From Bacillota bacterium (lineage in GTDB: Bacteria; Bacillota; UBA994; UBA5500): DNA of 64,000 bases. Below, piece by piece: positions 2,091 to 61,400 of the stretch (positions are counted from its first letter, which is position 1; each line of letters starts with the position of its first letter). The stretch lies in contig JAEZJZ010000078.1 of the NCBI GenBank assembly GCA_023436245.1, forward strand, positions 79,758 to 143,757. Direction: 5' to 3'. The notes beneath the pieces were generated by a model. That model was not told the DNA's origin. It did not search any database and saw nothing but the letters and a program-made list of their open reading frames with translations. Made by a program: the position numbers and the translations under genes.

Positions 2091-2222
2091 TTGTTAGGCA
2101 AAGTGAAGAAGGTGTTTCCCGGCGGCAATACCGGCTTCGGTTTCTATTCCCTCTACGACAACATCGCTAGTTCGGACACTAATGCCATCTTTGTCCTCAA
2201 GGGTGGAGGCTTGAGCGCATAG
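2091..2222 (+). CDS. small hypothetical protein (43 aa), convergent with int
   Basis: TTG start preceded by AAGGGAGG with an 8-nt spacer. Sits inside the longer track ORF 1842..2222. Encodes ...KVKKVFPGGNTGFGFYSLYDNIASSDTNAIFVLKGGGLSA. Confidence 0.2.
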   Translation: MLGKVKKVFPGGNTGFGFYSLYDNIASSDTNAIFVLKGGGLSA

Positions 2223-3710: not shown

Positions 3711-3940
3711 GAGAGCACCTCCGTGGCGAGTCCAATATCGGTTGGGGATGTGGTTGGTTACCGCGGGTACACATGCCAGCAAGAGAGCTCAAGTGGGGCG
3801 GGAGACCTAGGACTCTCTTCTTCTCTTAGCCTCCCTAACATCCTTATGATAAACCCACTCTGAAGGGGCCATGGGCATTTGAAATCAGCGTTTTGCCAAT
3901 AAATGGCCAGCCAATGATCGGCTGGCCATTTCGGATTATC

Positions 3941-4786: not shown

Positions 4787-4800
4787 GCTCAATCACTCCT

Positions 4801-5889: not shown

Positions 5890-6109
5890 TTGACAAACCT
5901 CCAATCATCAGCGCATCATGGTCGGCAGTGTATCGCACAAGGACGAGGGCAGCGGTCCAGGTGCGTGGAGCATGCGCATTGTCACATTTCTTCACGCCTC
6001 GGCAGATTCCTCCAAGAATAGGCAAGAAAATGCCTCGTTTTGGCAGGACTCCAGGGATTCCTGGCAGAACGATAAGACCATATGTCAGGATGGCGGGAGG
6101 TGTCAGATA

Positions 6110-14330: not shown

Positions 14331-14389
14331 CTCGAGCCACCCCCTTCGCATGACTAACTAATTTTTACTGTAGCTGATTGTTACACAAA

Positions 14390-43169: not shown

Positions 43170-43487
43170 ATGGGGATGGAGTGGGACACAGTTCTGCCCG
43201 CACTGATTGCTGCGGCCGCGGCTGTCAGTGGCATGGTGCTCGGCTGGACAGCCAGGGCAAGGGACACACGACATGAGATCCGTGCAGACGCCGGGTCAAG
43301 CGCAGCCCTGCGCTCTGATGTTGAGTACATCAAGCGTGGAGTGGATGACCTTCGCCTAGACATTAAGGACCAGGGAAGGCGCTTCGATGAACTGGCTGAG
43401 CGCGTGACGCGGGTGGAGGAGTCGAGCAAGCAGGCGCACAAGCGAATTGACCGATTGGATGGTGTTGACCGTGGCGCTGACGACTAG
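43170..43487 (+). CDS. putative holin (single TM plus coiled coil)
   Basis: N-terminal TM VLPALIAAAAAVSGMVLGW. Immediately upstream of the endolysin. Confidence 0.4.
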   Translation: MGMEWDTVLPALIAAAAAVSGMVLGWTARARDTRHEIRADAGSSAALRSDVEYIKRGVDDLRLDIKDQGRRFDELAERVTRVEESSKQAHKRIDRLDGVDRGADD

Positions 43488-44718
43488 GCAACAGTTCATT
43501 ACCAGCAGAAACCGACCAGGCACCAGAATCACGCCGACGAGCGTCACTGTTCACAACACCGCCACGCCAAACGCCACAGCACAGAACGAACGAGACTTTC
43601 TGCAGACCCACCCGGATGCGAAGGTCTCGTTCCATTTTGCCGTGGATGATGCTGAGGCCGTGCAATGTCTGCCACTGGATGAGATGTCCTGGCACGCCGG
43701 CAGCCGGGCTAACCGACAGAGTATGAGCATCGAAGTCTGCGAGTTCGACGACCGGGAGCGCCAGACGATGGCCAACCGCAATGCGGCTGAGCTGGTCTCC
43801 CAATTGCTCGCTCAGTTTGGATGGGGGCTGGAGCAGGTCAAGACACACAAGGACTGGACCGGCAAGGAGTGTCCGCGGAAGCTACTACCGATGTGGGATG
43901 AGTTCCTGTTGATGATTGCGAGAGGGGGAGAAGAGATGAGATTCAAGGATGTTCCTGCTACCCACTGGGCGGCGGGAGCGATTGAGCAGGCGGTGAGCCA
44001 GGGCTGGGTGGGTGGCTTCACGGATGGCACGTTCCGGCCGGAGGAACCGGTTACCCGGGCGCAGGCGGTATCCATGGTCGGCCGGGCGACAGTCTACATG
44101 GCCAATCGGCTGCAGGCCCTGATCGCCAAGTGCAAGCCGGCGGTAGTCAAAGTGACCAGCCGATCCGCCGCAGGCACCGTCCTTGGTGCCGGCAGCATCA
44201 TCACGACTGATGGCTACATCCTCACCAACGAGCATGTGGTTAAGGACCGGCAGGCTGGGCAGTTCTACCCTGACCTACAGGTGCACATCGTGACTGACCC
44301 AGAGCTCTACGAGGTAACCAAGGCATACCCGGCCACGGTCGTCGCCACGAGTAACTGGGATGACCTGGCGCTCCTCAAGGTGGACCTGAAGGGGCTGCCC
44401 ATCCTGCCGTTGGCCAGCAAGACGCCGCCAGAGGGTACAGCAGTGGTAGCAGTGGGGCATCCGTCCGGAATGCAGTATACCAGCAGCGCCGGCGTTGTGA
44501 CTCAAGACATGGCTGTAATCGGCGGGATGATCACGGTGATGCAAACTGATGCAGCCATCAACCCTGGTAACAGTGGTGGCCCGATCGTGGATCTTGGCGG
44601 TCGCATGGTGGCCGTGGCCGTGTCTAAGCTGCAGGACTTGGACAATGTTGCGTTTGGTGTGCGCATCGAAGACGTGCGTAACTTCGTGGCCAAGCATCTG
44701 CCTAACCTAGTTAAGTAA
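43447..44718 (+). CDS. endolysin: N-acetylmuramoyl-L-alanine amidase plus SLH domain plus trypsin-like (S1) peptidase domain
   Basis: Amidase_2 N-terminus (ITPTSVTVHNTA...SFHFAVDD). SLH (FKDVPATHWAAGAIEQAVSQGWVGGFTDGTFRPEEPVTRAQ). Serine protease GNSGGP plus His/Asp. Confidence 0.75.
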   Translation: MTDWMVLTVALTTRQQFITSRNRPGTRITPTSVTVHNTATPNATAQNERDFLQTHPDAKVSFHFAVDDAEAVQCLPLDEMSWHAGSRANRQSMSIEVCEFDDRERQTMANRNAAELVSQLLAQFGWGLEQVKTHKDWTGKECPRKLLPMWDEFLLMIARGGEEMRFKDVPATHWAAGAIEQAVSQGWVGGFTDGTFRPEEPVTRAQAVSMVGRATVYMANRLQALIAKCKPAVVKVTSRSAAGTVLGAGSIITTDGYILTNEHVVKDRQAGQFYPDLQVHIVTDPELYEVTKAYPATVVATSNWDDLALLKVDLKGLPILPLASKTPPEGTAVVAVGHPSGMQYTSSAGVVTQDMAVIGGMITVMQTDAAINPGNSGGPIVDLGGRMVAVAVSKLQDLDNVAFGVRIEDVRNFVAKHLPNLVK

Positions 44719-44756
44719 TCACGGCCGCCTAAGCCGAGAAGAAAGGGTGAGAGATA

Positions 44757-45122
44757 ATGACAACTCAGCACGTGTTGCATATCGCGTGGGAGTGGCGTTA
44801 CCCCCTGGTGGTTGCGCTGCTGACCATCATCTACCTCGTGTTGAACTGGCAGCGGGCCTGGACCAAGCTCAAGGAGATCACACCTCAGCTGATGCTGCTG
44901 GCGCAGAAGCGAGCCAAAGAGCTCCTCCTGGCCTCCGGGGAGGCTCGCATGGCCTGGGTTGTGCAGTACATTATGACCACCGTCTTGCCGGCGTTTCCTG
45001 CATGGCTTCGCCCCTGGTTCACCGAGCAACGAGTCCGCGCATTTGCGCAATGGGTATTTGATACATCACTTGATCTACTGGACGACGGTCAGCTCAACGG
45101 CTCGGCCGACGTGAGCGCATAA
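44757..45122 (+). CDS. membrane protein (holin-like/lysis accessory)
   Basis: TM segments YPLVVALLTIIYLVL and VVQYIMTTVLPAFPAWL. Last gene before a strong terminator. Confidence 0.35.
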   Translation: MTTQHVLHIAWEWRYPLVVALLTIIYLVLNWQRAWTKLKEITPQLMLLAQKRAKELLLASGEARMAWVVQYIMTTVLPAFPAWLRPWFTEQRVRAFAQWVFDTSLDLLDDGQLNGSADVSA

Positions 45123-45159: not shown

Positions 45160-45190
45160 TTAACGACGCCCCCGATAGGGGGCCTTTTTC
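45160..45190 (+). terminator. rho-independent terminator ending late operon
   Basis: GCCCCC-GATA-GGGGGC followed by TTTTTC. Confidence 0.6.
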
Positions 45191-45242: not shown

Positions 45243-46121
45243 CTACTGGCTGTCTCGCCTGTCATCTGCTTCAGTGCTTGACACAACGGCGCTGGCTTCT
45301 TGCTTGTGCTTCATGACTTTCTCCAAGTACTCTCCCCAGTACTCCTCATCTCCATCGATATCCTGAAGCCAGTAGTACATGATTAACAGCTCGATATCCT
45401 GCTTGTGGCCCCTAACGAACGGCTTCCTGGAACACTTGGAGAATAGCGTATCAATATTGAAGAGGTTGCCCTTCTGCCTGTGGTCGTAATGGAGCATGCC
45501 ATTACTCAGCTTCTTACGGTGCCTGACCGGCCACTTATCATTGTGTTCGCAGAAGAAGTACGCGTATGAACAGGCGAAGGCTGGCATGCTGACCCCGTAT
45601 TTGGCCTCAGTGTGCTCAATCCACTCAGCAAACTCCGCGGTTACAAAAGGCACATCACGATTTCCAAGAGCGCTTGCTCTGACTCGCTGATGATCTTTGA
45701 TGAAGCGAAAGAGCATTTCTGTTTGGCTCTTCAGATACGGATGCTTCTTTACCAGGCTTGAGTAGCATTCGTAGGACATTGCTCTGAACTCGCTCTCTGA
45801 AGAGTAAAGCAGGAAGAGCTCATCTTCGTCGATGATGCCCCTCAGGAGTCTGTGCAGATAGTGTCCATGGTCTGCATACATCTGCAGCAGCCATTTCTGG
45901 ACATCGCCATCGTACTCATCAATAAGCTTCTGTAGCCGGTTGATTCTCTCCAGGTCAAGTGCATTGCGACTATCAATCTCTGTGATGTCGAGATAGTTGT
46001 TGAAATACTCAAAGACATAGCTCACGCATGCTTGGGTATTGTCAGATCTCTTCGACATATCGAACTCGTTTATCTGATCCTCCTGCTTTCGTTTGGCGAT
46101 ATACTCGTCGATCGTTAACAC
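45243..46121 (-). CDS. hypothetical protein (low GC), partner of the SLOG gene
   Basis: 292 aa with no recognisable domain. Directly downstream of 46205..46747 on the same strand. Confidence 0.45.
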   Translation of the reverse strand: MLTIDEYIAKRKQEDQINEFDMSKRSDNTQACVSYVFEYFNNYLDITEIDSRNALDLERINRLQKLIDEYDGDVQKWLLQMYADHGHYLHRLLRGIIDEDELFLLYSSESEFRAMSYECYSSLVKKHPYLKSQTEMLFRFIKDHQRVRASALGNRDVPFVTAEFAEWIEHTEAKYGVSMPAFACSYAYFFCEHNDKWPVRHRKKLSNGMLHYDHRQKGNLFNIDTLFSKCSRKPFVRGHKQDIELLIMYYWLQDIDGDEEYWGEYLEKVMKHKQEASAVVSSTEADDRRDSQ

Positions 46122-46204
46122 GGTTATCCCTCCTCACCATGCAAACACAAGAGACTTGCCTTCACCTCGTCTAGGTCAACAGACATCCGCACTGCGCCAC
46201 GCTT

Positions 46205-46747
46205 TCACCACCCGTAGAACTTCTTCGGATTGTAGATGACCAGCTCCCTTCCGGCCTTCCTCGCTCTGCAGACAGTATCATAGGTACCGCCTCGTTCCAC
46301 CTCAGTCCAGACAGCAAGAACTAAATCAGCCTGGTCGACCAAGTACTGGTTCCTGGCAAGTAGTTTCGCTGGGTCATATATGCCCACGGGAACCTTGGGG
46401 ACAGCGTACTCCGGAAGTTCATCAACTCGGACAACCTCATCGGCCACATCCAATCGATGCCGGTACCTTTGCCGGTGCTCCGGATCCCAGTGCTGCGCCT
46501 GGTCTGCATACGGCACCGCAGCAACAAGCCGTACTTCCGGGTGTAGCTGTTCCCGAATTTTGGTGCACACGTCAAAAGCCATGCTATCTACGCCAAGTGC
46601 CATACCGAAGAGAAAACGATCAGCCTTGCGTTTCTGGATGAACTCCAGCAGCCGCCGCGCCAGCTCTTGACGCATATACGCATAGTTTCGGTTGGGGCTG
46701 TATCCCCAAAGGCCGGTTGGGCGATGGCCAGTAACAGCTACGATCAT
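46205..46747 (-). CDS. SLOG-superfamily (YpsA/DUF1273-like) protein
   Basis: ATG at 46747 after GGAAGGTGGTG. MIVAVTGHRP...FLFGMALGVD...LVLAVW...GGT matches the Rossmann SLOG pattern. Confidence 0.5.
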   Translation of the reverse strand: MIVAVTGHRPTGLWGYSPNRNYAYMRQELARRLLEFIQKRKADRFLFGMALGVDSMAFDVCTKIREQLHPEVRLVAAVPYADQAQHWDPEHRQRYRHRLDVADEVVRVDELPEYAVPKVPVGIYDPAKLLARNQYLVDQADLVLAVWTEVERGGTYDTVCRARKAGRELVIYNPKKFYGW

Positions 46748-47033
46748 TTGTTTGCACCACCTTCCTGGACTATGATACTGCGTTGCTAGTGCAATGTCCT
46801 GCAGATATTGAGATGAGAGTTCGGGGCAACGCATGGTCTCCTCAGATCGGCAAAACTGACCGGTCAAGTACCAGAAGCTTGGCATTTCCACCTGAAGCAG
46901 GACGAATTCTGGCGTCTGGGGGAAGGATTTTGCACGTAAATAGGCAAATTCATGCAGTAGACCAGTGTGGGCTGCTGTTGGACAGGTGGATGAGCAAAAA
47001 ACGATACCGGGAGATAGATGGAGGTGATCGACT

Positions 47034-49643
47034 TTGGCATTCAAGAAGACACACAAAGCGATTTCCGCAGTTGCAAGTCCAGAGGAGTTGTTCATGGATC
47101 TCAGGAACAGATCTGTCCAGGGCCTGATGCTCCATCAAGGGGACATTCTGCGTGAGTACAAAAGGAAAATTCTCGACTCTGCCGATCCACCGCGGGACGT
47201 TGCTATCGAGTTGCCGACCGGAAGTGGCAAGACATTAGTTGGGCTCCTAATTGGTGAGTACCGACGGCGTGCGCTTGAGGAGCGAGTGTTATACCTGTGT
47301 CCAACCAAGCAACTTGTTCACCAGGTCGTAGCACAGGCGCGACAGAAGTACGGCATCAAGGCTCTTCCGTTTGTCGGGGCCCAATCAGCCTATGATCCGT
47401 CAGACCGTAGCGACTATCTCTTTGGTAGGGCGATCGCCGTGAGCACTTACAGTGGTTTGTTCAACTCCAATCCGTTCTTCAGCAACCCTGATACCATAAT
47501 CCTGGATGATGCCCACGTGGCAGAAAACTACATGGCCGCTATGTGGTCTTTGGAACTGCCCCGGTCGGAGTATCCAGAGGTTTACGAGTCAGTCATCAGG
47601 CTTCTGAAAGACCGAATACCTGATTACCAGCATGACAGAATGTTGGCTGGCGATCCGACGCCCAATGACAGGGCGGTGGTTGACAAAGTCCCCACCCCGG
47701 TCCTTATGGATATTTCGCGCAACCTGATAGCACTGCTTGACACCCGACTCAGGGAGAAGAGGGCGTCATACTCATGGAATGCGATTCGTGATCATCTGGC
47801 GGCGTGTCACCTATACTTCTGTTGGGACGGTATTCTCCTTAGGCCGATTATTCCCCCTACGATGACACATAGGCCGTTCGCTGAGGCCAAGCAGAGGCTC
47901 TACATGTCCGCGACTCTTGGGAAGGCCGGGGATCTTGAGCGCTCCACCGGGGTCAAGCGAGTCTCCAGGCTTAGTATACCGGGAGGATGGGATAGACAAG
48001 GAGTCGGTAGGAGGCTTTTCTTCTTCCCAGAGCTTAGCCTGACCCGAGATGAGACCGATTCCCTTGTGCTAAGCATGATTAAGAAGGTTCCGAGGGCACT
48101 GATTCTCGTCCCTGATAGTCAGTCAGCCCTAAAATGGAGAGAGCTCGTGGCTAGCTCGACTGACTATGCGGTGCTTGGTGCGCAGGATATCGAGACTTCA
48201 AAGGACCCCTTTGTTACCAAGAGACACGCAGTTGCCGTTCTCGCGAATAGGCTGGACGGAATCGACTTCCCTGAAGAGGAGTGTCGCTTGCTGATCGTGA
48301 GCGGCTATCCGCGAGCGACGAACCTGCAGGAGCGGTTTCTGCAGAGCCGAATGGCTGCTGCTTTCTTGCTGAGGGACCGTATCAAGGCACGGGTCCAGCA
48401 AGCCATTGGTCGTTGCACCAGAAGTGCGACCGATTACTCTGCGGTTTGTGTATTAGGGGCAGAGCTAAGCGATACTTTGCTCCACAAGGAAGACCGTACG
48501 CGATTCCATCCAGAACTGCAGGCTGAGTTGGACTTTGGGCGCCACCAGTGTATGGATACTAGCGCGGACGAAATGCTGGACAATCTTCGAATCTTTCTCG
48601 AGCATGGGGACGATTGGGATGCAGCCGATTCTGAGATCGTGCAAATCCGAACGGAGCTTACAGCCAGAGACGATCCTGCTGCCGAAAAACTGCGTCTTTC
48701 AGTTGAACACGAAGTGGCCTACGCATACGCGATCTGGAGAGGTGACTACCCGAAGGCCATTGAAGAGTGTGACAGTTCACTGGCAGCCCTGGTTGGGGAC
48801 GACGTGAAGGGATACCGTGGTTTTTGGAATTACCTTGCTGGTTGTGCCGCGCGTCTTGGCAGCCAGGCGGGACTCGTACATCTTGAACAGGTTGCAGTAA
48901 AGCATTTTCACTCAGCTTCAGCGTGTTCCGATTCTGTAGGCTGGTTCCGGGCTTTGGCGAATGATCAGCCCGGTCAACCAGAAGAGGAACAGGTGGTCTT
49001 CGAGCGAGAGCTTGTTGACGTCATCGAGCGGCTTGAGGCTGTGCTGGATGACATGGGTACCTCAAGTCCGCGCCGATTTGAGAAGGAAGCTAGCGAAATA
49101 CTGGAGCTCCTGAGCTCGACCGAGGCAAAGAAATTTGAGGCCGGACAGGTCAAGCTTGGTACCCTCCTAGGTTATAAGTCGAGCAATACTGATGGAAAGG
49201 CTGGCCCAGACCCCTGGTGGATTGCATCAGACACAGTCTGCTTGGTCTCAGAAGAGACTTGGAGAGAGAATGAGCTCTTCATCTCAGTCAACAAGGCGCG
49301 TCAAGCTGCGACACACGAGAGCTGGATAAGGGGGCACTTAGCCGACCTAAGTCCGAACGCTACCGTAGTGACAGTGTTCATAACAAATGCGACAGCTGTC
49401 GACGCAGAAGCCCTGACCCTCACCCCCAATCTCTACTACTGGGGCATACCTGAGTTTCGGACTTGGGCTGCCCATTCAATAGATGTCGTGCGAAGTCTTC
49501 GATCTCAGTTTCCCGGCCCGGGAGACATCATTTGGAGAGCATTGGCCATGGAGAAGTACAGAGAACATGCCATGGACCCCCTTTCCCTCGTGACCGCGGT
49601 TAAGGATAGACCCCTTAGCAAACTCGAGATCAGAAATCACTGA
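47034..49643 (+). CDS. SF2 helicase (DEAH-like) with about 400 aa uncharacterised C-terminal region
   Basis: TTG start after GGAGGTGAT. Motif I LPTGSGKT, motif II LDDAH, SAT, motif VI QAIGRCTR. No N-terminal HsdR-type nuclease domain. Confidence 0.7.
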   Translation: MAFKKTHKAISAVASPEELFMDLRNRSVQGLMLHQGDILREYKRKILDSADPPRDVAIELPTGSGKTLVGLLIGEYRRRALEERVLYLCPTKQLVHQVVAQARQKYGIKALPFVGAQSAYDPSDRSDYLFGRAIAVSTYSGLFNSNPFFSNPDTIILDDAHVAENYMAAMWSLELPRSEYPEVYESVIRLLKDRIPDYQHDRMLAGDPTPNDRAVVDKVPTPVLMDISRNLIALLDTRLREKRASYSWNAIRDHLAACHLYFCWDGILLRPIIPPTMTHRPFAEAKQRLYMSATLGKAGDLERSTGVKRVSRLSIPGGWDRQGVGRRLFFFPELSLTRDETDSLVLSMIKKVPRALILVPDSQSALKWRELVASSTDYAVLGAQDIETSKDPFVTKRHAVAVLANRLDGIDFPEEECRLLIVSGYPRATNLQERFLQSRMAAAFLLRDRIKARVQQAIGRCTRSATDYSAVCVLGAELSDTLLHKEDRTRFHPELQAELDFGRHQCMDTSADEMLDNLRIFLEHGDDWDAADSEIVQIRTELTARDDPAAEKLRLSVEHEVAYAYAIWRGDYPKAIEECDSSLAALVGDDVKGYRGFWNYLAGCAARLGSQAGLVHLEQVAVKHFHSASACSDSVGWFRALANDQPGQPEEEQVVFERELVDVIERLEAVLDDMGTSSPRRFEKEASEILELLSSTEAKKFEAGQVKLGTLLGYKSSNTDGKAGPDPWWIASDTVCLVSEETWRENELFISVNKARQAATHESWIRGHLADLSPNATVVTVFITNATAVDAEALTLTPNLYYWGIPEFRTWAAHSIDVVRSLRSQFPGPGDIIWRALAMEKYREHAMDPLSLVTAVKDRPLSKLEIRNH

Positions 49644-49903
49644 CACTGCCAGAACCATTTAGCCGAAACCACCTACTCGGAGACAGGCCTCTGAGCAGCA
49701 TAAGAGGATCTCCAAGCAGAGTCGCAAATGAGATAGAATAGACAACAACTAGATACACTTGTCGCCGCCTTACGGTGCGCAAGGGGTAGTCGGTTGGGAA
49801 GGTGGCATTATTCCAGAGGGCCCGCATCCACCGGCACCTTCACTCTTGGAATGCGCAAGCTCGGCGGAACAAGTAATGGCTGATGCCAGAAAAGAGGAGA
49901 AGC

Positions 49904-51688
49904 ATGGAGCTCAAGGAAGGTTATCTTTACGATTTCATCAGCGGAACCCCTGTTCGCGCCACCCCGGAAGAGATAGACGCGGTTCAGGTTTTCTCCCAAA
50001 TGTTAGTTAACGACTATGGCTATCCCAAGAAGCTCATTCAAACTCGTCCGCAATGGCGAGTGAAGGCCAGGCCGTCAGACACGAAGAAGGAGTATCCAAT
50101 AGACATAGCCGTTTTTTCTGATGAGCGCCACACAGAGGACAGCATCCAGATTATCGTCGAATGCAAGAAGAAGACCAGGAAAGACGGCAAGACACAGCTC
50201 GCTGACTATCTGAGATTTTCCAGAGCTCGAGTCGGTGTTTGGTTCAATGGTAAGGAACGCCTATTCCTTCATAAGCATGAGCAGGATGGGCGAGTTGAGT
50301 TCTCTGAGTTGCCCAATATTCCCCGGTTCGGCGAGAGAGTTGAAGACATTGGCCGATTCCGTCGACGGGACCTTAGGCCTGCAACCAACCTAAAGTCCGT
50401 TTTTCGGGCAATCCGAAACTATCTAGCAGCGAATGCCGTGGGCATCACCCGTGACGAAGTGTTCGCGCAGCAGCTCATAAACCTGATCTTCTGTAAGATC
50501 TACGATGAAAGGTTCACAAAGAAGAATGATATTGTGACCTTTCGTGCCGGTACCAACGAGCCTGATGCTGACGTTAGGGCCAGGATACTTGGGCTATTTG
50601 AGAAGGTCAAGTCTCAGTATGATGATGTAATTGATGTTGGCGACTCGATAGTCCTTGATGACCGCTCACTCGTCTACGTAGTAGGTGAGCTGCAGCTCTA
50701 CTCGCTGCAGGATAGCACAAGGGATGCTGTTGGAGATGCATTTGAGGTGTTCATCGGTCCGTCTCTGAAGGGTGGGCAGGGTCAGTTCTTCACCCCAAGA
50801 AACGTCGTGAAGATGATCATCGATATGGTTGATCCCACGCCAGAGCAAAAAGTCATCGATCCTGCGTGCGGCAGCGGCGGATTCCTTGTGGAGGCACTTC
50901 GCCACGTATGGGGGAAGGTGCAGGAGAAAGGCGAAAGCCTGGGATGGCCGGAACACGAGATTGAGGCCGAGAAGCAAAAGGTTGCAATCAGGAACTTCCG
51001 TGGCATAGACAAGGACTCTTTCTTGAGCAAAGTAGCCAAGGCGTATATGGCAATACTCGGCGATGGAAGGGGCGGTGTGTTCTGCGAGAATAGCCTTGAG
51101 TCTCCGGCCAACTGGCATAGCTACACAAGGAATCAGGTTCAGCTTAACGAGTTTGACGTAGTCATTACCAATCCACCTTTTGGCAAGAAGCTATCCATCG
51201 ATTCGGAAGACATTCTTAGGCATTACGACTTGGGTCACAAATGGGACTACGACAGCAGCACTGATACATTTCAGAAAGGCTCGCTCCAGGACAAGCAGCC
51301 TCCCCAAATACTGTTCATTGAGAGGTGCCTGGATCTTCTCAAGGACGGGGGGAAACTGGGCATTGTGCTGCTAGAGAGCATCTTTGGGATGCCCAAGTAT
51401 CGCTACGTTGTGGATTACCTCGAAAAGAGAACCAAGATTCTTGCACTGGTAACCATGCCTGAAGATCTATTCCAGCCTCACACACACGCCAAGTGCTGTG
51501 TCCTAATCTGCGAGAAGACCTCCGATCAGCAGGAAGACCACGAGATCTTCATGGCCGATGTGAAGTGGTGCGGCCACGATAGCCGTGGCAATCCCACTGT
51601 CCGGGTGGACTCGAGCGGCGCGGAGGTTCTCCTCGATGACATCCCTCGCGTTGCTCCTTTATACCACGAAGGGGCAAAACAGAGATGA
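49904..51688 (+). CDS. restriction-modification subunit: N-terminal HSDR_N-like PD-(D/E)xK nuclease fused to gamma-class N6-adenine methyltransferase (BcgI A-like/type IIB-IIG)
   Basis: N-terminus YPIDIAVF...IVECKKK (D/E-x-K). Methyltransferase motifs IDPACGSGGFL and NPPFG. Start could be ATG 49904 or 49883. Confidence 0.6.
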   Translation: MELKEGYLYDFISGTPVRATPEEIDAVQVFSQMLVNDYGYPKKLIQTRPQWRVKARPSDTKKEYPIDIAVFSDERHTEDSIQIIVECKKKTRKDGKTQLADYLRFSRARVGVWFNGKERLFLHKHEQDGRVEFSELPNIPRFGERVEDIGRFRRRDLRPATNLKSVFRAIRNYLAANAVGITRDEVFAQQLINLIFCKIYDERFTKKNDIVTFRAGTNEPDADVRARILGLFEKVKSQYDDVIDVGDSIVLDDRSLVYVVGELQLYSLQDSTRDAVGDAFEVFIGPSLKGGQGQFFTPRNVVKMIIDMVDPTPEQKVIDPACGSGGFLVEALRHVWGKVQEKGESLGWPEHEIEAEKQKVAIRNFRGIDKDSFLSKVAKAYMAILGDGRGGVFCENSLESPANWHSYTRNQVQLNEFDVVITNPPFGKKLSIDSEDILRHYDLGHKWDYDSSTDTFQKGSLQDKQPPQILFIERCLDLLKDGGKLGIVLLESIFGMPKYRYVVDYLEKRTKILALVTMPEDLFQPHTHAKCCVLICEKTSDQQEDHEIFMADVKWCGHDSRGNPTVRVDSSGAEVLLDDIPRVAPLYHEGAKQR

Positions 51689-53160
51689 TCCATTATTGGC
51701 ATAAGAAGAGTGATATCAAAGCCAGGGTGTATATCCCAAAGTACTATGACCCATTCCTAGTAGACGATCTCCAGTCGCTGAGGGACACTCATGACCTGTT
51801 TGTTGTAGAACAGCTTGTTAGCGAGGGTGCCATATCAATTAGCACAGGGCACGAGATAGGAAAGCTGGCTTACGGCACAGGTGATATACCATTCATTCGG
51901 ACATCGGACATATCAAACTGGGAAATCAAGTCCATGCCGAAGCAAGGCGTCTCAGAAGAGATCTATCAGGAGTACGCCGAGTCACAGGATATGCAGGTTG
52001 GAGACATATTGCTGGTGCGGGATGGAACCTATTTGATCGGAACCAACTGCATAGTCACTGAACTTGACAAGAAGTGTCTATATCAGTCGCACATTCTAAA
52101 AATCAGGGTCAACGATAAGGCAAAGGTTGATCCTCGAATACTGTTCCTTGCGTTGAACTCTGACTTGGTTCAGCGTCAGATTCGTAGCTTTCAGTTCACG
52201 GCCGATACCATTGACACAATCGGCAACCGTTACCTCGAGCTGGTGATCCCTATTCCGAAAAGCGCATCAAAGAGGAACGAGCTCTCCGGGAGAATCAGAA
52301 CCCACTTGGACACACGCGAGCGTGGCAGGGCGTTCATAAAGCAAGCCCCAGTTCTAATGGAGGAGGTACTTGAGAGAGGTACAGTTGAGCCAATCCAAGC
52401 CTTCATGGAGAAGGACTGGGCAGACATTCTATCTGACATGAGTCAGAATACCATTGTCTCTGAGTTTGGCCCCTTTCAGGCATTCTGGCAGCGATCAGGG
52501 AGCATTAGGGAAAGAATCTACCTACCTAAGTACTACGATCCTGAGATAGTGAGCGAACTTGCTGGCCTGGGAGAGACTTGCAATTGTGTTTCGATTGGCG
52601 ATCTCGTCAATGACGGCCTGATTCAGTGTTCCACCGGTGACGAAATCGGCAAGATGGCATATGGAACCGGCGAGATTCCGTTCATCCGGACTAGTGATTT
52701 CTCCAGCTGGGAGATCAACCATAACCCAAAGCAAGGGGTTTCGGATGAGATCTATGAGCAGTATGCCGACTCGCAGGATACCAGGAGCGGCGACATTTTC
52801 ATCGTGCGTGATGGCACCTATTTGGTAGGGACATCATGCATTGTCACTGAGCATGATGCCAAGAGTCTGTACTGTGGAGGAATCTACAAGATTCGTGTCC
52901 TGGATGAGTCTGCAATTAGCCCGTGGCTGCTGCTAGGATTGCTCAACTCGTTCATTGTGAAGCGCCAGATACGAACAAAGCAGTTTACCCGCGACGTCAT
53001 AGATACACTCGGTCAGCGACTGTTCGAGATTATCCTGCCGATACCTAAATCAAAGGAAGTGCGCGAGCAGATTTCCGAGCAGGTCAAGGAAATAGTCTTG
53101 TCGCGGATAGACGCCCGTCAGGCAATCTCCAAGTTGGCGGACGAGCTAATAGAGGGATAA
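51685..53160 (+). CDS. HsdS-like specificity subunit with two near-identical target-recognition domains
   Basis: Two halves share long identical stretches (IPKYYDP..., GDIPFIRTSD..., VRDGTYL.GT.CIVTE). ATGA overlap with the upstream gene. Confidence 0.75.
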   Translation: MIHYWHKKSDIKARVYIPKYYDPFLVDDLQSLRDTHDLFVVEQLVSEGAISISTGHEIGKLAYGTGDIPFIRTSDISNWEIKSMPKQGVSEEIYQEYAESQDMQVGDILLVRDGTYLIGTNCIVTELDKKCLYQSHILKIRVNDKAKVDPRILFLALNSDLVQRQIRSFQFTADTIDTIGNRYLELVIPIPKSASKRNELSGRIRTHLDTRERGRAFIKQAPVLMEEVLERGTVEPIQAFMEKDWADILSDMSQNTIVSEFGPFQAFWQRSGSIRERIYLPKYYDPEIVSELAGLGETCNCVSIGDLVNDGLIQCSTGDEIGKMAYGTGEIPFIRTSDFSSWEINHNPKQGVSDEIYEQYADSQDTRSGDIFIVRDGTYLVGTSCIVTEHDAKSLYCGGIYKIRVLDESAISPWLLLGLLNSFIVKRQIRTKQFTRDVIDTLGQRLFEIILPIPKSKEVREQISEQVKEIVLSRIDARQAISKLADELIEG

Positions 53161-53290
53161 CGGACGCTCGGTTGACGATCGATACACCAGCGAGGCCACG
53201 GAGCCTGCTGAACTGATACCTAGACATGATCGCAGAGCGAATCTCCAATCATTGGGCACATCCTGAGAATCTTTGGGAGGCTGATTCCTC

Positions 53291-54331
53291 ATGCCTGTAT
53301 GGCTTATTCGCGCGGGTGCGCACGGAGAGTATGAAAGCAAGTTTGTGCAGGAGAGCAGGATCTACGCAACGTGGGACAACCTCAACGCCGACTTAAGAAG
53401 GATGAACCACAAGGGTGATCTGATCTCCCTTATGGCCGAGAGATACCCTGACGCAAAGAAGAAGGCAGTCCAGAACTGGGCGAGTCAGGTCTGGCCTTTC
53501 GCCCATGAGATTAGCAAAGGCGATCTGGTTGTTCTTCCGTTGAAGTCACAACCAGCGATACAGATCGGAGAGGTAGTGAGCGATTATCGCTTTGAGGCTG
53601 CCGGACCAAGCCCGTTCTATCATTGGCGGTCCGTGAAGTGGATAGGTGAGGCGATTCCGCGAGCCAACTTTGGTCAGGACCTTCTTTACTCTTTTGGCGC
53701 ATTTATGACAATCTGCCGTATACAGCGAAATAACGCTGAAGAACGTATAGTTGCAATGCGCACCAATGGCTGGAAGAAAGAGAATCTGGCTGTCATCAGT
53801 GCTGCCACTCCAACGTCAGTCATCCAGGATGAAGCTGGCGCCGACAACACAGATCTTGAGGTACTGGCGCGTGACCAAATAGCTCAACTTATCTCAGCTA
53901 GGTTCAAGGGGCATAACCTGACCCGCCTGGTAGACGCGATTCTTAGGTCGCAAGGGTATGTCACTTATGTCAGTCCTGAAGGGCCGGATGGCGGAGTGGA
54001 CATTCTTGCCGGCGCCGGCCCGCTGGGGTTTGGCGCTCCGCGTCTCTGTGTTGAAGTGAAGTCTGGTGACGCACCTATTGATAGACCCAGTGTGGATAAG
54101 CTGCTGGGAGCTGTCGCCAAGTTTGGTGCACAGGAGGGGCTGTTCGTGTCCTGGAGCGGGTTCAAGAGCAACGTGCAGAAAGAGTTGGCTGCCAGCTTCT
54201 TTCGGGTAAGGCTTTGGACCCAGACAGAGCTGCTAGAAGCGTTGTTTGCCAACTATGACAAACTGGATGAAGATATCAAAGCGGAGCTACCCTTGAAGCG
54301 ATTTTGGACAGTGGCTGTTCAGAACGAGTAG
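53291..54331 (+). CDS. Mrr-like restriction endonuclease (Mrr_N plus Mrr_cat)
   Basis: N-terminal winged-helix-like region. C-terminal VDILAG...LCVEVKSGD catalytic core. Confidence 0.55.
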   Translation: MPVWLIRAGAHGEYESKFVQESRIYATWDNLNADLRRMNHKGDLISLMAERYPDAKKKAVQNWASQVWPFAHEISKGDLVVLPLKSQPAIQIGEVVSDYRFEAAGPSPFYHWRSVKWIGEAIPRANFGQDLLYSFGAFMTICRIQRNNAEERIVAMRTNGWKKENLAVISAATPTSVIQDEAGADNTDLEVLARDQIAQLISARFKGHNLTRLVDAILRSQGYVTYVSPEGPDGGVDILAGAGPLGFGAPRLCVEVKSGDAPIDRPSVDKLLGAVAKFGAQEGLFVSWSGFKSNVQKELAASFFRVRLWTQTELLEALFANYDKLDEDIKAELPLKRFWTVAVQNE

Positions 54332-54450
54332 TACCGCTGCTCGCTCTAGTATACTGAGCGAAGTGACTCGCAATCGACTCGATAGGGGTGAAGACTGCAG
54401 ATTGACCTAGATGGGCAGAGCCAGAGCTGCTCGCTGGAGGATTGAGGAAC

Positions 54451-55446
54451 ATGGATCCATGGGATAACCTCCCTGAACTGAACAAGAAGGCAGAACGGTA
54501 TCTGAAGAAGGCTCAGGATCTTTTGATGTACTGCACAACATGCCAACCCTATGATCAGGGGCCTGTATGGGTCTTGGGTGAAGAGACGACTGTTGACGAG
54601 CTCTTTGATATCGTTGCCTGCCCTGAGGCCTACAGGGATGACATCGCGGCGCACCTCCAATGCCCTAGCTGCGGCGCAATGATCTCCGATAGATATGCCG
54701 ACATTGGTTTGGAGGACCGGTATGCCAGACACGCCGAGCAAACATATGAGCGTGCGGTCAAGCGCTACCGCCGGAGGATCGATGCTCTGCGTGAACACCT
54801 GAACCACTTTCCCTCACTTGCCCTACACAACGCCTTCGCGAGAACGCTCTTGGCGGAGATAACTGGGAAGAGAGCCGAGAGTGTCTGCATCTCCGAAAGG
54901 AGATGGTTCCGCTCTCGGAACCTCGAGGGGGCCAAGGTATTTGAGTGCGAGAACATGTGGGCTCCGAGTGAAGGGCTGTCACCTGGCGGCCGATTTCATC
55001 ATGCAGGGCAAAGTGTGCTTTATGTTGCAGACTCCAAGGAACTAGCGATCAGGGAATCGCTTGCCAGAGCTGACGAGCCATCACTGATTTGGTATCAGGA
55101 GTACTCTCTCGAATCAGATTTGGAGGACGTACTCGACCTTAGGTATGATTGGGAAAACTATGGACAGATGTCCAATGGTCTTCTTGCCGCCTTGCTGGCC
55201 AGTGGAGTCTTGTCAGAACCTGTGGCTGACAGAAGCAACAAATGGCAACCGCAATACTTTATAACACGCTTCATAGCGGATTGCGCAAAACTGTCTGGCT
55301 ATAAAGGCATCATTTACACATCTACGAAATACGACGGAACTAATCTGGCAGTGTTTGATAGTGCCAATCTTTTCGTGTCGGTTGGAAAGCCTCAGGTATA
55401 CATCTATCGTCCTTCCGAGCAGACAGTGTTCCGATTCAGCATATAG
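54451..55446 (+). CDS. RES-domain protein with about 170 aa N-terminal zinc-ribbon extension
   Basis: GGRFHHAGQSVLYVADSKELAIRE...GIIYTSTKYDG gives R, E and S in the canonical spacing. N-terminus has CTTCQP...CPSCG. Confidence 0.55.
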   Translation: MDPWDNLPELNKKAERYLKKAQDLLMYCTTCQPYDQGPVWVLGEETTVDELFDIVACPEAYRDDIAAHLQCPSCGAMISDRYADIGLEDRYARHAEQTYERAVKRYRRRIDALREHLNHFPSLALHNAFARTLLAEITGKRAESVCISERRWFRSRNLEGAKVFECENMWAPSEGLSPGGRFHHAGQSVLYVADSKELAIRESLARADEPSLIWYQEYSLESDLEDVLDLRYDWENYGQMSNGLLAALLASGVLSEPVADRSNKWQPQYFITRFIADCAKLSGYKGIIYTSTKYDGTNLAVFDSANLFVSVGKPQVYIYRPSEQTVFRFSI

Positions 55447-55557
55447 CAATCCAGATTCCAGTTTGCCTGGTGTAGCATTGTCCGCGTTCGACTCTGACAC
55501 CATCTGTGTATTCTTCATGCGCTAAAGGGTGGTCCCGGCGTCGGCAAGTCCAGTTTC

Positions 55558-56529
55558 ATGCGTTGGATCGGGCAAGCGATGCGTGAACGTGGCTACGATA
55601 TCGAGGAGCACAACTGTTCTTCAGACAACGGGTCCCTGGATGGCGTGAAGATCCCGGCGATCGGGGTTACTCTGCTAGACGGAACTGCACCGCACGTAGT
55701 CGACCCTAAGAACCCGGGCGCAGTGGACAGCATCATCCACCTCGGCGATTACTGGAATGAGGAAGGCATTCGTGCCCACAAGGCCGAGATAGTTGCGGCC
55801 ATTGCTCGCAACGGCTTCCTGTTCCGCCGCGCCTACGGCTACCTGCGCGCAGCCAAGGGCTACAACGATGAGTTGGAAGCATACATAAGGGAGACAGGAG
55901 CGCTGGATGTGGCTGGGCTGAACCGGCTGGCGGCTGACACCATCAGCGGCATTTTCGCTGCGGCCCCGGCAAAGGATGGGGCAGCGAAGGAGCGCCATCT
56001 CTTTGCCAGTGCCATCACGCCCGGAGGCATGGTCAACTATCTGTCCACCATCGTCGGCGACCTTGACCGCCGCGTGTTGGTGCAGGGACGCCCCGGCAGC
56101 GGTCGCACCACCATCGTGCAGAAGGTGATGTCCGCAGCCGTCGAGCTGGGGTATGATGTGGAGGCTTACCACTGCGCGCTGAGTCCAGAGCGCATCGACC
56201 ATGTCGTCATCCCCGAGCTTTCTGTGGCCGTGATGAACGCCAGCGAGCCGCACTCCTACGGCCCCGGGACCAATGATTGGGTGATCGACACCATGCAGTA
56301 CGTCGATTGGGCCAAGTTGGCCAGCTTCGACCATGACATTCTTCGCCTGACCAGGCTGTACCACGAGGCCTTGGACTCTGCCGTCTGCATGATCGCCCGC
56401 GCCAAGAAGAACCACGACCAGATCGAGACCTACTACGTGCCGCACATGGATTTCGCCGCTGTCACCAAGCGCCGCGAGCAGGTGCTGCAGCGCATTTTGC
56501 AGATCGCGGCCCGGGTGGAGACTAAGTAG
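55558..56529 (+). CDS. tandem P-loop (nucleotide-kinase-like) domain protein; reading frame opens at 55498 with no canonical start (possible pseudogene)
   Basis: Walker A GGPGVGKS lies upstream of the first ATG and is in frame. A second P-loop GRPGSGRTT heads an internally duplicated domain. Only CTG/ATT codons and no SD between the stop at 55495 and the P-loop. Confidence 0.35.
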   Translation: MRWIGQAMRERGYDIEEHNCSSDNGSLDGVKIPAIGVTLLDGTAPHVVDPKNPGAVDSIIHLGDYWNEEGIRAHKAEIVAAIARNGFLFRRAYGYLRAAKGYNDELEAYIRETGALDVAGLNRLAADTISGIFAAAPAKDGAAKERHLFASAITPGGMVNYLSTIVGDLDRRVLVQGRPGSGRTTIVQKVMSAAVELGYDVEAYHCALSPERIDHVVIPELSVAVMNASEPHSYGPGTNDWVIDTMQYVDWAKLASFDHDILRLTRLYHEALDSAVCMIARAKKNHDQIETYYVPHMDFAAVTKRREQVLQRILQIAARVETK

Positions 56530-58492: not shown

Positions 58493-61400
58493 ATGGTGCT
58501 AGGAATGAAAGTGGCGCAGAAGACTCAACGGTTGCTTGCATTGCTGATGCTGACTGTGTTGACCAGTCTGTGGTTCAACCCGCCAGCAGCGCAGGCAGGC
58601 ACTCTGAACATTGTCACAGCTAATTACGCAGGCGTTCCCAGCGACGCATTCGAGTACGTTAAGTTCACCGTTGAGCGGGCTAGCCTCTACGAACTAAAAA
58701 CCAGTTCTTACCTGCAGGACTGCGATACGGAGCTCTGGTTGTTTGACAGTGACTACGGCCTAATTGAGGAAAACGATGATTACGTAGACCTGTACTCCTA
58801 CATCAGTCGTCGCCTTGATGCGGGGACGTACTACTTCGTGGTCACGGAGGTAGGGGGAGGTCCTCTCTATTGCCATTTCGAGATTAACGACCTCGAGGCA
58901 ATGACGCCCGCGACCACCCCGAGCGCTAGCTTCTCCTTTGATGGTGAGAGTGCGGGCAAGCTGATGGGCACCACGGCGCAGATGACGTGCTCGCTGGATG
59001 GGGGCCACAACTGGGCTCGTTGCACCGCGCCGAGTACAGACCTGTCCGGCGCTCTGGGCAGCATCAGAACGCACCTCGACATCAAGGTTAAGAACCTGGG
59101 CGATGGAGTCACCACCATCGAGTCTGCGGTGCAGACCATCGACATCACCCGGGCTGCCGAGCCGACCACGGCCGGCAAGGTGGACTGCAGCACGCTGGCC
59201 AATAACGACGGCAAGCTGACCGGCGTGAGCGCGGCCATGGAGTATAGGCTCTATTCCGACAGCAGTTGGATCAGCGGCACCGGCAGTGATATCACCGGCT
59301 TGCAGAGCGGCACCTATTTCGTCCGGGTAAAGGCGACGGGCACAGTGATGGCTTCAGGCCCGCAGACTCTGGTCATCAACGCCTACGTCGGCACACCCGC
59401 GACTACCCCCAGCGCAATCTTCTCCTTTGACGGGAGCGATGCGGGCAAATTGCTCGGCACCACTGAGCAGATGCGGCACTCGCTGGACGGCGGCTACACC
59501 TGGTTGCCTTGCACCGCGCCGAGTACAGTCCCGGCCGGCACTATCGGCAAGAACTACGACATCAGAGTCAAGGACATGGGGGATGGCGTCAACACCACCG
59601 AGTCTCAGGTGCAGACCATCGATATCACCCAGGCTGCCGCGCCGACCACGGCCGGCAAGGTGGACTGCAGCACGCTGGCCAACAACGACGGCAAGCTGAC
59701 CGGCGTGACCACGGCTATGGAGTACTGGAGCTACACCGACGGAACATGGGTCAGCGGCACCGGCAGCGATATCACCGGCTTGCAGAGCCGCACCTATTTC
59801 GTCCGCGTAAAGGCGACGGGCACAGTGTTGGCTTCAGACCCGCAGATTCTGGTCATCAACGCCTACGTCGGCACACCCGCGACTACCCCCAGCGCGACTT
59901 TCTCCTTTGATGGCGATGACGCCGGCAAGCTGCTCGGCACCACTGAGCAGATGCGGTACTCGCTGGACGGCGGCAGTACTTGGGTTGCTTGCACCGCGCC
60001 AAATACCAATCTTTCCGACTATGTGAGCAGTATCAATGAAGATGACGACATCAAGGTCAAGGACCTGGGCGATGGAGTCACCATTACCGAGTCTGCGGTA
60101 CAGACCATCGACATCACCCAGGCGGAGGTGCCCACGGCTGACAAGGTGAATTGCGCCACGCTGGCCAACAACGACGGCAAACTGACCGGCGTAACCACGG
60201 CTATGGAGTACAAGCTCTCTACCGCCGTCACCTGGACCAGCGGTACCGGCAGCGATATCACCGGCTTGACCACCGGCAACTATTACGTCCGCGTCAAGGC
60301 AACGGGCACGGTGCAGGCGTCCGACGAGCAGACTGTGACCATCAACGCCTATAGCGGCACGCCCGCAGCACGCCCGAACACAACCTTCTCCTTCGACGGT
60401 ATCGATGCGGGCAAGCTACTCGGCACCACCGCGCAGATGAAGTACTCGCTGGACGGGGGCAGTACCTGGATTGCTTGCACCGCGCCAAGTACCAGTCTTT
60501 CCGACGCTGTGAGCAGCATTAATGAAGACGACGATATCCAAGTTAAGGACATGGGAGATGGCGTCACCACCATCGAGTCTACGGTGCAGACGATCAACAT
60601 CATCCGGGCGAACACTCCCACGGCTGGCAAGGTGGACTGCACTACGCTGACCAACAACGACGGCAAGCTGACTGGCGTGACCACGGCCATGGAGTATAGA
60701 CTCTCCTCCACCGGCTCCTGGGTCAGCGGCACGGGCAGCGACATCACTGGTTTGGCTAGTGGCACCTACGATGTTCGCGTCAAAACCGCCGGCACGGCTC
60801 TGGCGTCCGACGTGCAGACTTTGACCATCAACGCCTATAGCGGCACGCCCGCAGCACGCCCGAACACAACTTTCTCCTTCGACGGTATCGATGCGGGCAA
60901 GCTACTCGGCACCACCGCGCAGATGAAGTACTCGCTGGACGGGGGCAGTACCTGGATTGCTTGCACCGCACCGAATACCAGTCTTTCCGACGCTGCGAGC
61001 AGCATCAATGAAGATGACGACATCAAGGTTAAGAACCTGGGCGATGGAGTCACCACCATCGAGTCTGCGGTGCAGACCATCGACATCACCCAGGCTGCGA
61101 GGCCGACCTTAGTTGCCACGGAACCCAGCACCACCGGCGGTAACGGCAGTATCCCGCTGACCACTGAGCACGAGTACAGACTGTCTGGCGCGATTGACTG
61201 GATTTCCGCTGAAGGGACTACGTCCCTTGCCCCTGGCAATTACCTCGTCCGCGTCAAAGCGACGGGCACAGTGTTGGCTTCCGAAACGCAGAGCATCACG
61301 CTGACAACTTTCACCGGGAATCCCGAGAGCACTCCCGCAGCAGTTGCGGACTATGCGGCCGAAGAGCTGACCAATCTCACGGCCGACGGCAGCTATGCTG

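Follow-up and report, generated by a model that had tools for sequence, protein, structure and literature searches.

The SLOG (YpsA-family) gene and the gene for a 292-amino-acid protein that follows it on the same strand are probably independent, moron-type accessory genes that are chance neighbors in the cargo arm of a prophage. Both open reading frames at positions 45243 to 46747 of the window (the whole 64,000-nucleotide stretch of DNA that was analyzed) were confirmed as real genes, as had been proposed in a preliminary description of this DNA. SLOG and the 292-amino-acid protein (the partner) are not a conserved two-gene system. The features of the window to which the text refers are as follows.

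2091 to 2222, plus strand: 5′ fragment (43 codons) of an ATPase gene on the attL side, ending at the attL core AAGGGTGG (2199 to 2206).
2241 to 3782, minus strand: large serine recombinase (integrase) beside attL, with Resolvase, Recombinase and Zn_ribbon_recom matches.
43447 to 45122, plus strand: prophage lysis cassette, from Pfam matches and gene calls.
45168 to 45183, strand not assigned: GC hairpin on which the lysis operon and the SLOG/partner unit converge and which both share; only on the plus strand does it have a T-run.
45243 to 46121, minus strand: partner gene (292 aa), of an uncharacterized all-alpha Bacillota family, filling a variable slot.
46122 to 46204, minus strand: spacer separating SLOG from the partner gene, with the GGAGG ribosome-binding site of the partner inside it and no terminator.
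46205 to 46747, minus strand: SLOG gene (180 aa), YpsA family, phage YoqJ-like type, from PF06908, 2NX2 and phrog_289 matches.
46772 to 46800, minus strand: promoter-like site (AGGACA-17-TATCAT) upstream of SLOG, a consensus match only.
47094 to 55446, plus strand: second cargo slot with a PDC-S28 helicase, an N6-MTase, a specificity-like subunit, an Mrr_cat protein (PDC-S02) and a RES-domain protein, from PADLOC and Pfam.
55525 to 56529, plus strand: attR core AAGGGTGG (55525 to 55532) and the 3′ part of the ATPase gene, from an NF005320 match.

The window contains an integrated prophage of about 53.3 kb (about 2207 to 55524) with a serine recombinase, which splits a gene for a PRK06851-like P-loop ATPase and has the pair inside it. 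The 8-nt core is present at both prophage ends. The translation of the 5′ fragment of the ATPase gene, which runs through NAIFVLKGGG to LSA and a stop, matched positions 1 to 40 of NF005320 (E = 4e-8). The 3′ part matched positions 49 to 360 only, and the sequence upstream of it in frame reads LKGGPGVGKSS. When the two fragments were joined in frame, positions 1 to 360 of the 363 in NF005320 were matched in one stretch, with a score of 295.9 bits compared with 232.1 bits for the truncated gene. No long att direct repeats were found in the whole window, as is expected for a serine recombinase, and the ends were located through the split ATPase gene instead. A tRNA as the integration target was rejected, as no tRNA genes are present. 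With attL at about 2.2 kb and attR at about 55.5 kb, the pair and the restriction-modification (RM)-like cluster are all inside the prophage. The position at a junction between a prophage and a defense island that had been suggested for the pair is inaccurate. SLOG shares its strand with the integrase and a CI-like repressor.

The SLOG and partner genes are both on the minus strand, 84 nt apart, and together fill positions 45243 to 46747. The SLOG open reading frame is readable from 47095, with the family match beginning at residue 119 of that long frame, and the public gene call for an identical protein (P0063) is 180 aa long. Based on the position of the family match and this gene call, SLOG was taken to start with the ATG at 46747 and to end at a stop at 46205. 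An N-terminal extension over 46748 to 47095 was rejected as coding because the family match lies later, the public gene calls begin only at 46747, and the related loci are divergent over this stretch. The partner gene starts with GTG, just 5′ of which the GGAGG is located. On one side, the unit is convergent with the lysis genes on the hairpin, which was detected by scanning and by RNA folding; an endolysin gene (Amidase_2, SLH and Trypsin_2; 43447 to 44718) and a holin-like open reading frame of 121 aa (44757 to 45122) lie directly before the slot of the pair. On the other side, the unit is divergent from the cluster of helicase, MTase, S, Mrr and RES genes.

No terminator was detected in the 84-nt spacer by RNA folding (z = 0.52; no U run after a GC hairpin), and the consensus scan found neither a promoter-like nor a terminator-like site there. 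Among the five loci with the closest SLOG homologs, the promoter-like block upstream of SLOG is conserved in L088, and −10-like hexamers are present at the position equivalent to that of the promoter-like site in L095 (TAGAAT) and L092 (TATAAT). SLOG and the partner are probably co-transcribed in the window, judging from the lack of a promoter or terminator of its own in the inserted partner cassette. The two-gene operon of the preliminary description is plausible as a single transcript and fails as a conserved functional pair. The terminator-free spacer and the good ribosome-binding site are also compatible with functional coupling, an observation that runs against independence of the two genes. 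The partner gene was described earlier as low in GC, and it does have the lowest GC content, with 48.5% compared with 55.4% for SLOG, 58% for the phage body and 58.5% for the host flanks.

An analysis of gene-neighborhood conservation, as the preliminary description had suggested, indicated that the partner is not co-conserved with SLOG. The SLOG HMM gave no match at E ≤ 0.01 in 97 partner loci (86 genomic or metagenomic and 11 viral), while the positive control in the window was detected at 4e-87, and tblastn for SLOG in the 86 genomic or metagenomic and the 11 viral loci also gave none. The partner gene was found in none of the five loci with the closest SLOG homologs (L087, L088, L091, L092 and L095; 49 to 83% identity, the highest in L091). 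The closest homologs of the partner, with 52 to 55% identity, have other neighbors. The close SLOG contexts number only about six, the majority being short metagenomic contigs. The five closest SLOG loci align to the window only over the SLOG gene and up to about 57 nt upstream of it (L088). When the phage genes of the window were compared with L087, L088 and L092, the only match besides SLOG was a Cu_amine_oxidN1 domain in L087.

The same loci bear on the proposal that the two genes form a modular conflict system, in which SLOG senses nucleotides or makes the signal and controls a swappable effector encoded by the downstream gene. The shared strand and the spacer without a terminator agree with such a system, SLOG domains have been proposed as sensors in conflict systems (PMC9503650, PMC6459960), and the partner domain is found in fusions with enzymatic domains, in the manner of adaptor or sensor modules. 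A co-directional gene also follows SLOG in L087 (an AbiJ_NTD4 protein) and L095 (a 164-aa protein); a co-directional downstream gene (for the partner, 164-aa and AbiJ_NTD4 proteins) was counted for the window and for three of the five closest SLOG loci. However, no such gene is found downstream of SLOG in L088 and L092, and the gap between SLOG and the downstream gene is 181 nt in L095 and 533 nt in L087. Moreover, the 97 partner loci are without any SLOG, and the GC content of the partner, 7 points under that of SLOG, speaks for a recent, independent insertion. Neither SLOG nor the partner matched a PADLOC-DB v2 model at E ≤ 0.01. A modular two-gene system is therefore very unlikely. Kinship of the partner with the downstream protein of L087 or L095 was considered and rejected (hhalign probability, 0.1). 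A module of SLOG with a swappable downstream gene is nevertheless compatible with the genes found downstream at related loci, which is a point against independence.

The location after the terminator of the lysis cassette, to which attention had been drawn before, is a true variable cargo slot, and related prophages keep SLOG there. In L088, L092 and L095, SLOG is convergent with lysis modules containing Amidase_2/3, and the content of the slot between SLOG and the lysis genes differs across these loci (a 357-aa protein, Peptidase_S8 plus AAA, and a 164-aa protein). Even the hairpin is retained in L095, where a 28-nt block with the terminator hairpin is 93% identical and is located downstream of the slot gene. 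On the attR side of SLOG, L091 has a matching attR junction with 95% amino acid identity but holds different, unrelated genes between attR and SLOG, within flanks that match those of the window. SLOG is a conserved gene of the prophage lineage with variable slots on both sides, one of which contains the partner. Both slots are prophage cargo hotspots with conserved flanks and differing content, on the basis of five to six loci. The stretch from the SLOG stop codon to the lysis-operon terminator is a slot in which cassettes are swapped, filled here by the compositionally foreign 292-aa gene.

The SLOG protein matched the YpsA family PF06908 with 62.8 bits (E = 5e-17; gathering cutoff, 27.7 bits) over profile positions 1 to 145 of 168, and the closest solved structure is that of B. 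subtilis YpsA (2NX2; E = 1e-7 over residues 2 to 154). A Rossmannoid SLOG fold is predicted from the sequence homology to 2NX2. SLOG also matched 156 phage genomes, SPbeta yoqJ among them, as well as phrog_289, and is 31 to 35% identical to YoqJ and to proteins of phi3T, Tsamsa and SP-15. Its subfamily is small, as only 7 of 5.8 billion proteins are homologs with more than 49% identity. The motifs TGHRP, G48..G52-V-D54 (GxD/E, a nucleotide-pocket motif as defined in PMC6459960) and GGT155 are conserved in the subfamily alignment. G52-V-D54 aligns with G53-V-E55 of YpsA, and TGHRP, in the glycine-rich first loop, aligns with TGYKP; neither motif varies within the subfamily alignment.

A housekeeping YpsA ortholog, that is, a division regulator of the host for which the neighboring gene would be irrelevant, was the outcome named earlier as refuting the conflict-system proposal. 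Membership in the Pfam YpsA family and the closest solved structure would agree with this explanation. However, the score of SLOG against the NCBIfam YpsA equivalog NF010181 was 41.5 bits, below the cutoff of 165. There is no gpsB beside SLOG, whose neighbors are the 292-aa gene and the PDC-S28 helicase gene; SLOG is inside a prophage, and its closest relatives are located beside phage lysis modules. The equivalents of G42, E44 and W45, which B. subtilis YpsA needs for the inhibition of cell division (PMC6459960), are replaced in SLOG by K, R and F, although the equivalent of W87 is present. YoqJ has likewise been reported to keep GxD/E and to have lost the division residues of YpsA (PMC6459960). 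A housekeeping role, already refuted by score and context, has practically no probability left.

By its sequence, SLOG is a member of the phage YpsA/YoqJ-like clade and hence of an already known kind. The viral YpsA/YoqJ-like SLOG clade has been predicted to bind or degrade immune signals derived from ADP-ribose, and SLOG is accordingly more likely to be a phage gene for counter-defense or host manipulation than a defense sensor of the host (PMC9503650). SLOG would most likely bind an adenine or ADP-ribose-derived nucleotide or process it N-glycosidically. For a phage, the most plausible use of this activity would be to blunt NAD+-derived immune signaling or to manipulate the host.

The partner has 61 homologs, with E values down to 6e-96. 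Its family comprises 346 representative clusters at E ≤ 1e-3 (clustered at 50% identity) and is present in at least 165 species-representative genomes. For the partner, no model was found in Pfam, PHROG, PADLOC or NCBIfam, and weak Pfam matches (Phage_AlpA, E = 0.014; DUF7175; a zinc-finger family) were rejected, all being under the cutoff. The partner profile matched nothing among PDB sequences (best E = 0.28), and the partner model matched nothing in BFVD below E = 1 by Foldseek. The partner is an all-alpha protein, and the family was called well folded. The N-terminal domain of the partner is elsewhere fused to a xylose-isomerase/EndoIV-like TIM barrel, an ImmA/IrrE (M78) peptidase or a GNAT domain. 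Nothing in the window corresponds to the C-terminal TIM-barrel domain of the long fused forms.

The immediate neighbors of the partner homologs, 155 genes, fell into 104 clusters. Neighbors of the family include Type I RM, GajB, AbiH, DarT, nSTAND3, TmtA, RmrA and several PDC families, and HNH, DUF262 or ImmA/IrrE were found among the neighbors of other members. The GC content of the family is below that of its own loci, with a mean of 31.8% compared with 35.7%. The family is cargo of defense islands and recombinase-proximal mobile-element regions of Bacillota, with highly variable neighbors. It travels alone through these defense islands and through the recombinase-proximal regions of prophages and integrative elements, and the partner would most likely act on its own as a defense, exclusion or regulatory factor.

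In S. wolfei a partner homolog directly adjoins a TIR gene, and in T. calidus one directly adjoins a SIR2-like gene, which could hint at a real link of the family to NAD+-type enzymes. There is a small chance that the partner represents an undescribed family that forms the conserved core of a modular system for anti-phage defense or exclusion in Bacillota mobile elements and acts alone or with swappable neighbors (TIR, SIR2-like, SLOG, HNH, DUF262 or ImmA/IrrE), the adjacency of SLOG and the partner in the window being one functional combination.

Same-strand serine recombinase genes are located upstream of the partner homolog in 22 to 24 of the 86 genomic or metagenomic loci, often three in tandem, and 5 of the 11 viral loci also have serine recombinases. 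The prophage of the window uses a serine recombinase as well, and the partner might serve mobile elements in maintenance or regulation, for instance by binding DNA as a regulator or as a directionality factor of a serine recombinase, with no function in defense and no relation to SLOG. However, about 70% of the partner loci have no recombinase within 6 kb, and the recombinase of the window is 43 kb from the partner. The HTH signals in the partner were below significance, and fusions to TIM-barrel, peptidase and GNAT domains are unusual for directionality factors. This role of the partner is unlikely.

Since the proposal of a new SLOG-based two-gene conflict system does not hold, the pair should not be prioritized as one. 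The more interesting remainder of the finding is the partner family, which is widespread, unannotated and strongly tied to defense islands and recombinase-proximal cargo and is therefore a reasonable candidate for defense screens. In the Bacillota prophage lineage, a conserved YoqJ-like SLOG gene is clearly bracketed by two cargo slots, and these are a defined place to seek new accessory genes. SLOG itself, which is small, conserved and, given the promoter-like site, apparently separately promoted, would be well suited to testing the anti-cADPR role predicted for its clade.

Thoeris consists of ThsA (SIR2/SLOG) and ThsB (TIR), and the SLOG domain of ThsA, which is of the YpsA-like clade, senses a cyclic ADP-ribose isomer. 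The window shares with Thoeris a SLOG of this clade, and members of the partner family elsewhere adjoin the TIR and SIR2-like genes mentioned above. In contrast to ThsA, the SLOG of the window stands alone and is not fused to an effector, and no TIR or SIR2 was found in SLOG, the partner or the flanking genes. With B. subtilis YpsA (2NX2, gpsB-linked), SLOG has the family, GxD/E and the W87 equivalent in common, but it differs in being prophage borne, in the lack of gpsB synteny, in the replacement of G42, E44 and W45 and in failing the equivalog model.

SLOG is most similar to the phage YpsA-like SLOGs (SPbeta YoqJ, phrog_289; DUF1273/PF06908) in that it belongs to the same Pfam family, has a similar size (about 160 to 180 aa), stands alone and is borne by a phage or prophage. 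Its gene is located in a late or cargo arm opposite the lysis genes, whereas SPbeta yoqJ is located in a run of small co-directional genes. The arrangement of the slots resembles the hotspots of defense genes in P2 and P4 prophages (Rousset et al. 2022, PMC9122126), in which conserved phage genes likewise flank a slot that varies between related prophages. The prophage of the window differs from these in its Bacillota lineage, its serine recombinase and the position of its slots between the lysis cassette and attR, and its second slot, as in the P2 and P4 hotspots, contains recognizable defense genes (PDC-S28, the RM-like set, Mrr and RES).

The pair of same-strand genes that the preliminary description placed at 45243-46747 was located there as two minus-strand ORFs:

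46747-46205, minus strand, SLOG gene, 180 aa, ATG start, stop at 46205
46121-45243, minus strand, partner gene, 292 aa, GTG start preceded by GGAGG
45168-45183, GC hairpin at the convergence point of the SLOG/partner unit and the phage lysis genes, with a T-run on the plus strand only

The longest reading of the SLOG ORF begins at 47095. The family match begins only at residue 119 of this long reading, the identical public protein P0063 was called at 180 aa, and related loci part from the window about 20 to 60 nt 5' of ATG 46747, indicating that the latter is the start. The 84-nt spacer between the two genes contained no terminator-like fold (RNA fold z=0.52) and no promoter-like site in the scan, and a consensus scan placed a promoter-like site (AGGACA-17-TATCAT, 46800-46772) upstream of SLOG. 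These signals make it plausible that both genes are on one transcript.

The surroundings of the pair include the following features:

2241-3782, minus strand, large serine recombinase adjoining the left junction
13536-14351, CI-like repressor
47094-55446, RM-like cargo cluster inside the prophage: PDC-S28 helicase, N6-MTase, specificity-like subunit, Mrr_cat/PDC-S02 protein and RES-domain protein

A 323-aa ORF at 55558-56529 matched NF005320, a PRK06851-type P-loop ATPase model, only from profile position 49 onward, and LKGGPGVGKSSF, in frame 5' of its ATG, is a Walker A motif. The missing ATPase N-terminus was found at 2091-2222, reading ...NAIFVLKGGG|LSA*; this fragment alone matched NF005320 positions 1-40 (E=4e-8). 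The octamer AAGGGTGG is common to 2199-2206 and 55525-55532. When joined at this octamer, the fragments matched positions 1-360 of 363 in a single stretch, and the score was 295.9 bits, versus 232.1 bits for the truncated form. The split ATPase, rejoined at the shared octamer, and the serine recombinase at the left junction indicate an integrated element at about 2207-55524 (about 53.3 kb). The GC content (about 58% in the host flanks and phage body, 52% in the right cargo, 55.4% in SLOG and 48.5% in the partner) agrees with these boundaries. The structural and lysis genes, SLOG, the partner and the entire RM-like cluster are all internal to the element, and hence not at a prophage/defence-island junction as had been proposed.

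In the RM-like cluster, the helicase matched PDC-S28 (E=1.5e-102) and the Mrr_cat protein PDC-S02 (E=6e-153); the N6-adenine MTase bears an HSDR_N_2 N-terminus, the specificity-like protein has two domains, and the RES-domain protein is 334 aa. The left cargo arm, in the integrase-repressor interval, carries a Type IV restriction-like MrcB_N + HNH protein (5918-7165) beside two uncharacterised genes (3941-4792 and 4801-5904, the second being phrog_38742). The endolysin (43447-44718) is unusual in combining three parts: Amidase_2, a single SLH domain and a peptidase domain of the Trypsin_2 type. A 1,456-aa SLH/BNR surface protein of the host (58493-62863) contains a 480-486-nt unit repeated four to five times in tandem, with 62-95% identity.

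The assignment of the first gene to the SLOG/YpsA family was borne out by matches to PF06908 (E=5e-17, 62.8 bits, gathering score 27.7) and phrog_289 and by the closest solved structure, B. subtilis YpsA (2NX2, E=1e-7). On the housekeeping YpsA equivalog it scored 41.5 bits, below the cutoff of 165, indicating that it is not the housekeeping YpsA. The pocket motif GxD/E is retained as G52-V-D54, as is the equivalent of W87, and K, R and F occupy the positions of YpsA G42, E44 and W45, which are required for the YpsA division phenotype; the same residue pattern has been reported for YoqJ (PMC6459960). Matches to SLOG came from 156 phage genomes, among them SPbeta (YoqJ), phi3T, Tsamsa, SP-15 and phages of Streptomyces and Microbacterium; in Myxococcus phage Mx1 the SLOG domain is fused to DUF4326. 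According to Iyer et al. 2022 (PMC9503650), viral SLOG domains belong mainly to the YpsA-like clade and are typically stand-alone; the same authors proposed that they detect or cleave immune signals derived from ADP-ribose. Following this published prediction, sensing or cleavage of such signals is the most likely mechanism for the window SLOG, which is a further member of a known phage SLOG kind whose role is predicted only.

Homologues of the partner numbered 61 in a word-indexed search and 346 representative clusters in an exhaustive search, with relatives in 165 species-representative genomes, nearly all Bacillota. An HMM built from the window SLOG subfamily was run on six-frame translations of 97 partner loci (86 genomic or metagenomic and 11 viral-contig). 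None matched at E<=0.01, with the window as positive control at 4e-87, and tblastn for SLOG in the same 86 and 11 loci found nothing. The nearest relatives of the partner (52-55% identity) have different neighbours from the window, and neighbours across the family were highly varied, the 155 immediate ones falling into 104 clusters. The pair's gene neighbourhood is thus not conserved, and the absence of SLOG from all partner loci does not support a functional two-gene system.

Among 5.8 billion proteins, 29 SLOG homologues were found, seven of them with at least 49% identity. The loci of five close homologues are as follows:

L091, SLOG 83% identical; same attR junction, with the ATPase fragment 95% identical and about 20 nt of element end conserved; five unrelated, unannotated genes stand in for the helicase/RM/RES cluster in the same slot
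L088, SLOG 72% identical; converges on an Amidase_2 lysis module, and the slot between them holds a 357-aa gene
L087, SLOG 67% identical; AbiJ_NTD4 protein 533 nt after SLOG
L095, SLOG 52% identical; converges on a lysis module, and the slot between them holds a 164-aa gene
L092, SLOG 49% identical; converges on an Amidase_3 lysis module, and the slot between them holds Peptidase_S8+AAA

Alignment of the window with these loci is confined to the SLOG gene and a short region before it that has a -10-like element; L095 in addition shares a 28-nt block (93% identical) that contains the terminator hairpin. None of the slot genes in the five loci is related to the partner. The AbiJ_NTD4 protein of L087 (9071-9949) is likewise 292 aa long and unrelated (hhalign probability 0.1). 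SLOG is conserved in this prophage lineage, and the slots on either side of it vary. Since SLOG is kept while slot genes differ, the stretch from SLOG to the lysis terminator is a cassette-swap slot, which supports the suggested moron hotspot after the lysis genes.

The adjacency of SLOG and partner is best explained as accidental: a conserved YoqJ-like prophage gene would stand beside a swapped-in cargo gene, the two probably being co-transcribed by read-through. Against this, the spacing is tight, and some co-directional gene also follows SLOG in three of the five closest loci; a module of SLOG with a swappable effector therefore keeps a small probability and is considered unlikely. The observation of the preliminary description is confirmed and its interpretation partly supported: the SLOG identity, non-housekeeping status and hotspot position stand, and the functional two-gene system and the junction placement are not supported.

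The partner had no match in Pfam, PHROG, PADLOC or NCBIfam. Its AlphaFold model is confident (pLDDT 89) and has 14 helices and one small hairpin. The N-terminal domain is fused to an ImmA/IrrE M78 peptidase in the protein P0062 (hhalign probability 99.3) and to a GNAT domain in P0183, and one long fused form adjoins integrases in a Syntrophomonadaceae phage. Neighbours were mostly co-directional and separated by short gaps: 71 of 83 upstream (median gap 112 nt) and 68 of 82 downstream (median gap 88 nt). Defence genes beside partner homologues included Type I RM, GajB, AbiH, DarT, nSTAND3, TmtA, RmrA, PDC-S05/S10/S26/S50, HEC-05 and DrmMII. A 541-aa TIR protein lies directly beside the homologue in S. 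wolfei (L001 6301-7926, 75-nt gap), and a SIR2-like protein matching the ThsA SIR2 region (E=1e-6) beside that in T. calidus (L074 6872-8230, 53-nt gap). In L108 (2070-6144), the homologue directly adjoins a WYL protein, after which come two dynamin-like GTPases. These fusions and contexts point to a module with an adaptor, sensor or regulatory role in mobile-element conflict systems, able to act alone.

The sole recurrent association was with large serine recombinase genes, often three in tandem, which precede the homologue on its own strand in 22-24 of 86 loci. Eight partner loci, distinct from the eight named next, adjoin a rumA-like methyltransferase gene that is a likely integration target. 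In L012, L014, L019, L023, L024, L028, L029 and L031, the homologue (match at 6001) lies 0.5-3.5 kb downstream of three tandem recombinases, with one variable gene (HNH, DUF262-like or uncharacterised) in between. These loci look like the recombinase-proximal cargo region of an integrative-element family. The GC content of the family is consistently below that of its own loci (mean 31.8% versus 35.7%). Together with the varied neighbours and the lack of SLOG co-conservation, the recombinase association and low GC indicate that the gene moves singly, as cargo of defence islands and of integrative-element ends. This family is the part of the finding that might repay experiments.

The prophage (about 2207-55524) breaks the PRK06851-like ATPase gene inside the Walker A codons, and excision at the AAGGGTGG core would rejoin it in frame (VLKGG|PGVGKS). 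The metagenomic contig L091 carries a related element at the same ATPase site. In splitting this gene, the prophage is comparable to SPbeta, skin and similar elements that interrupt genes.
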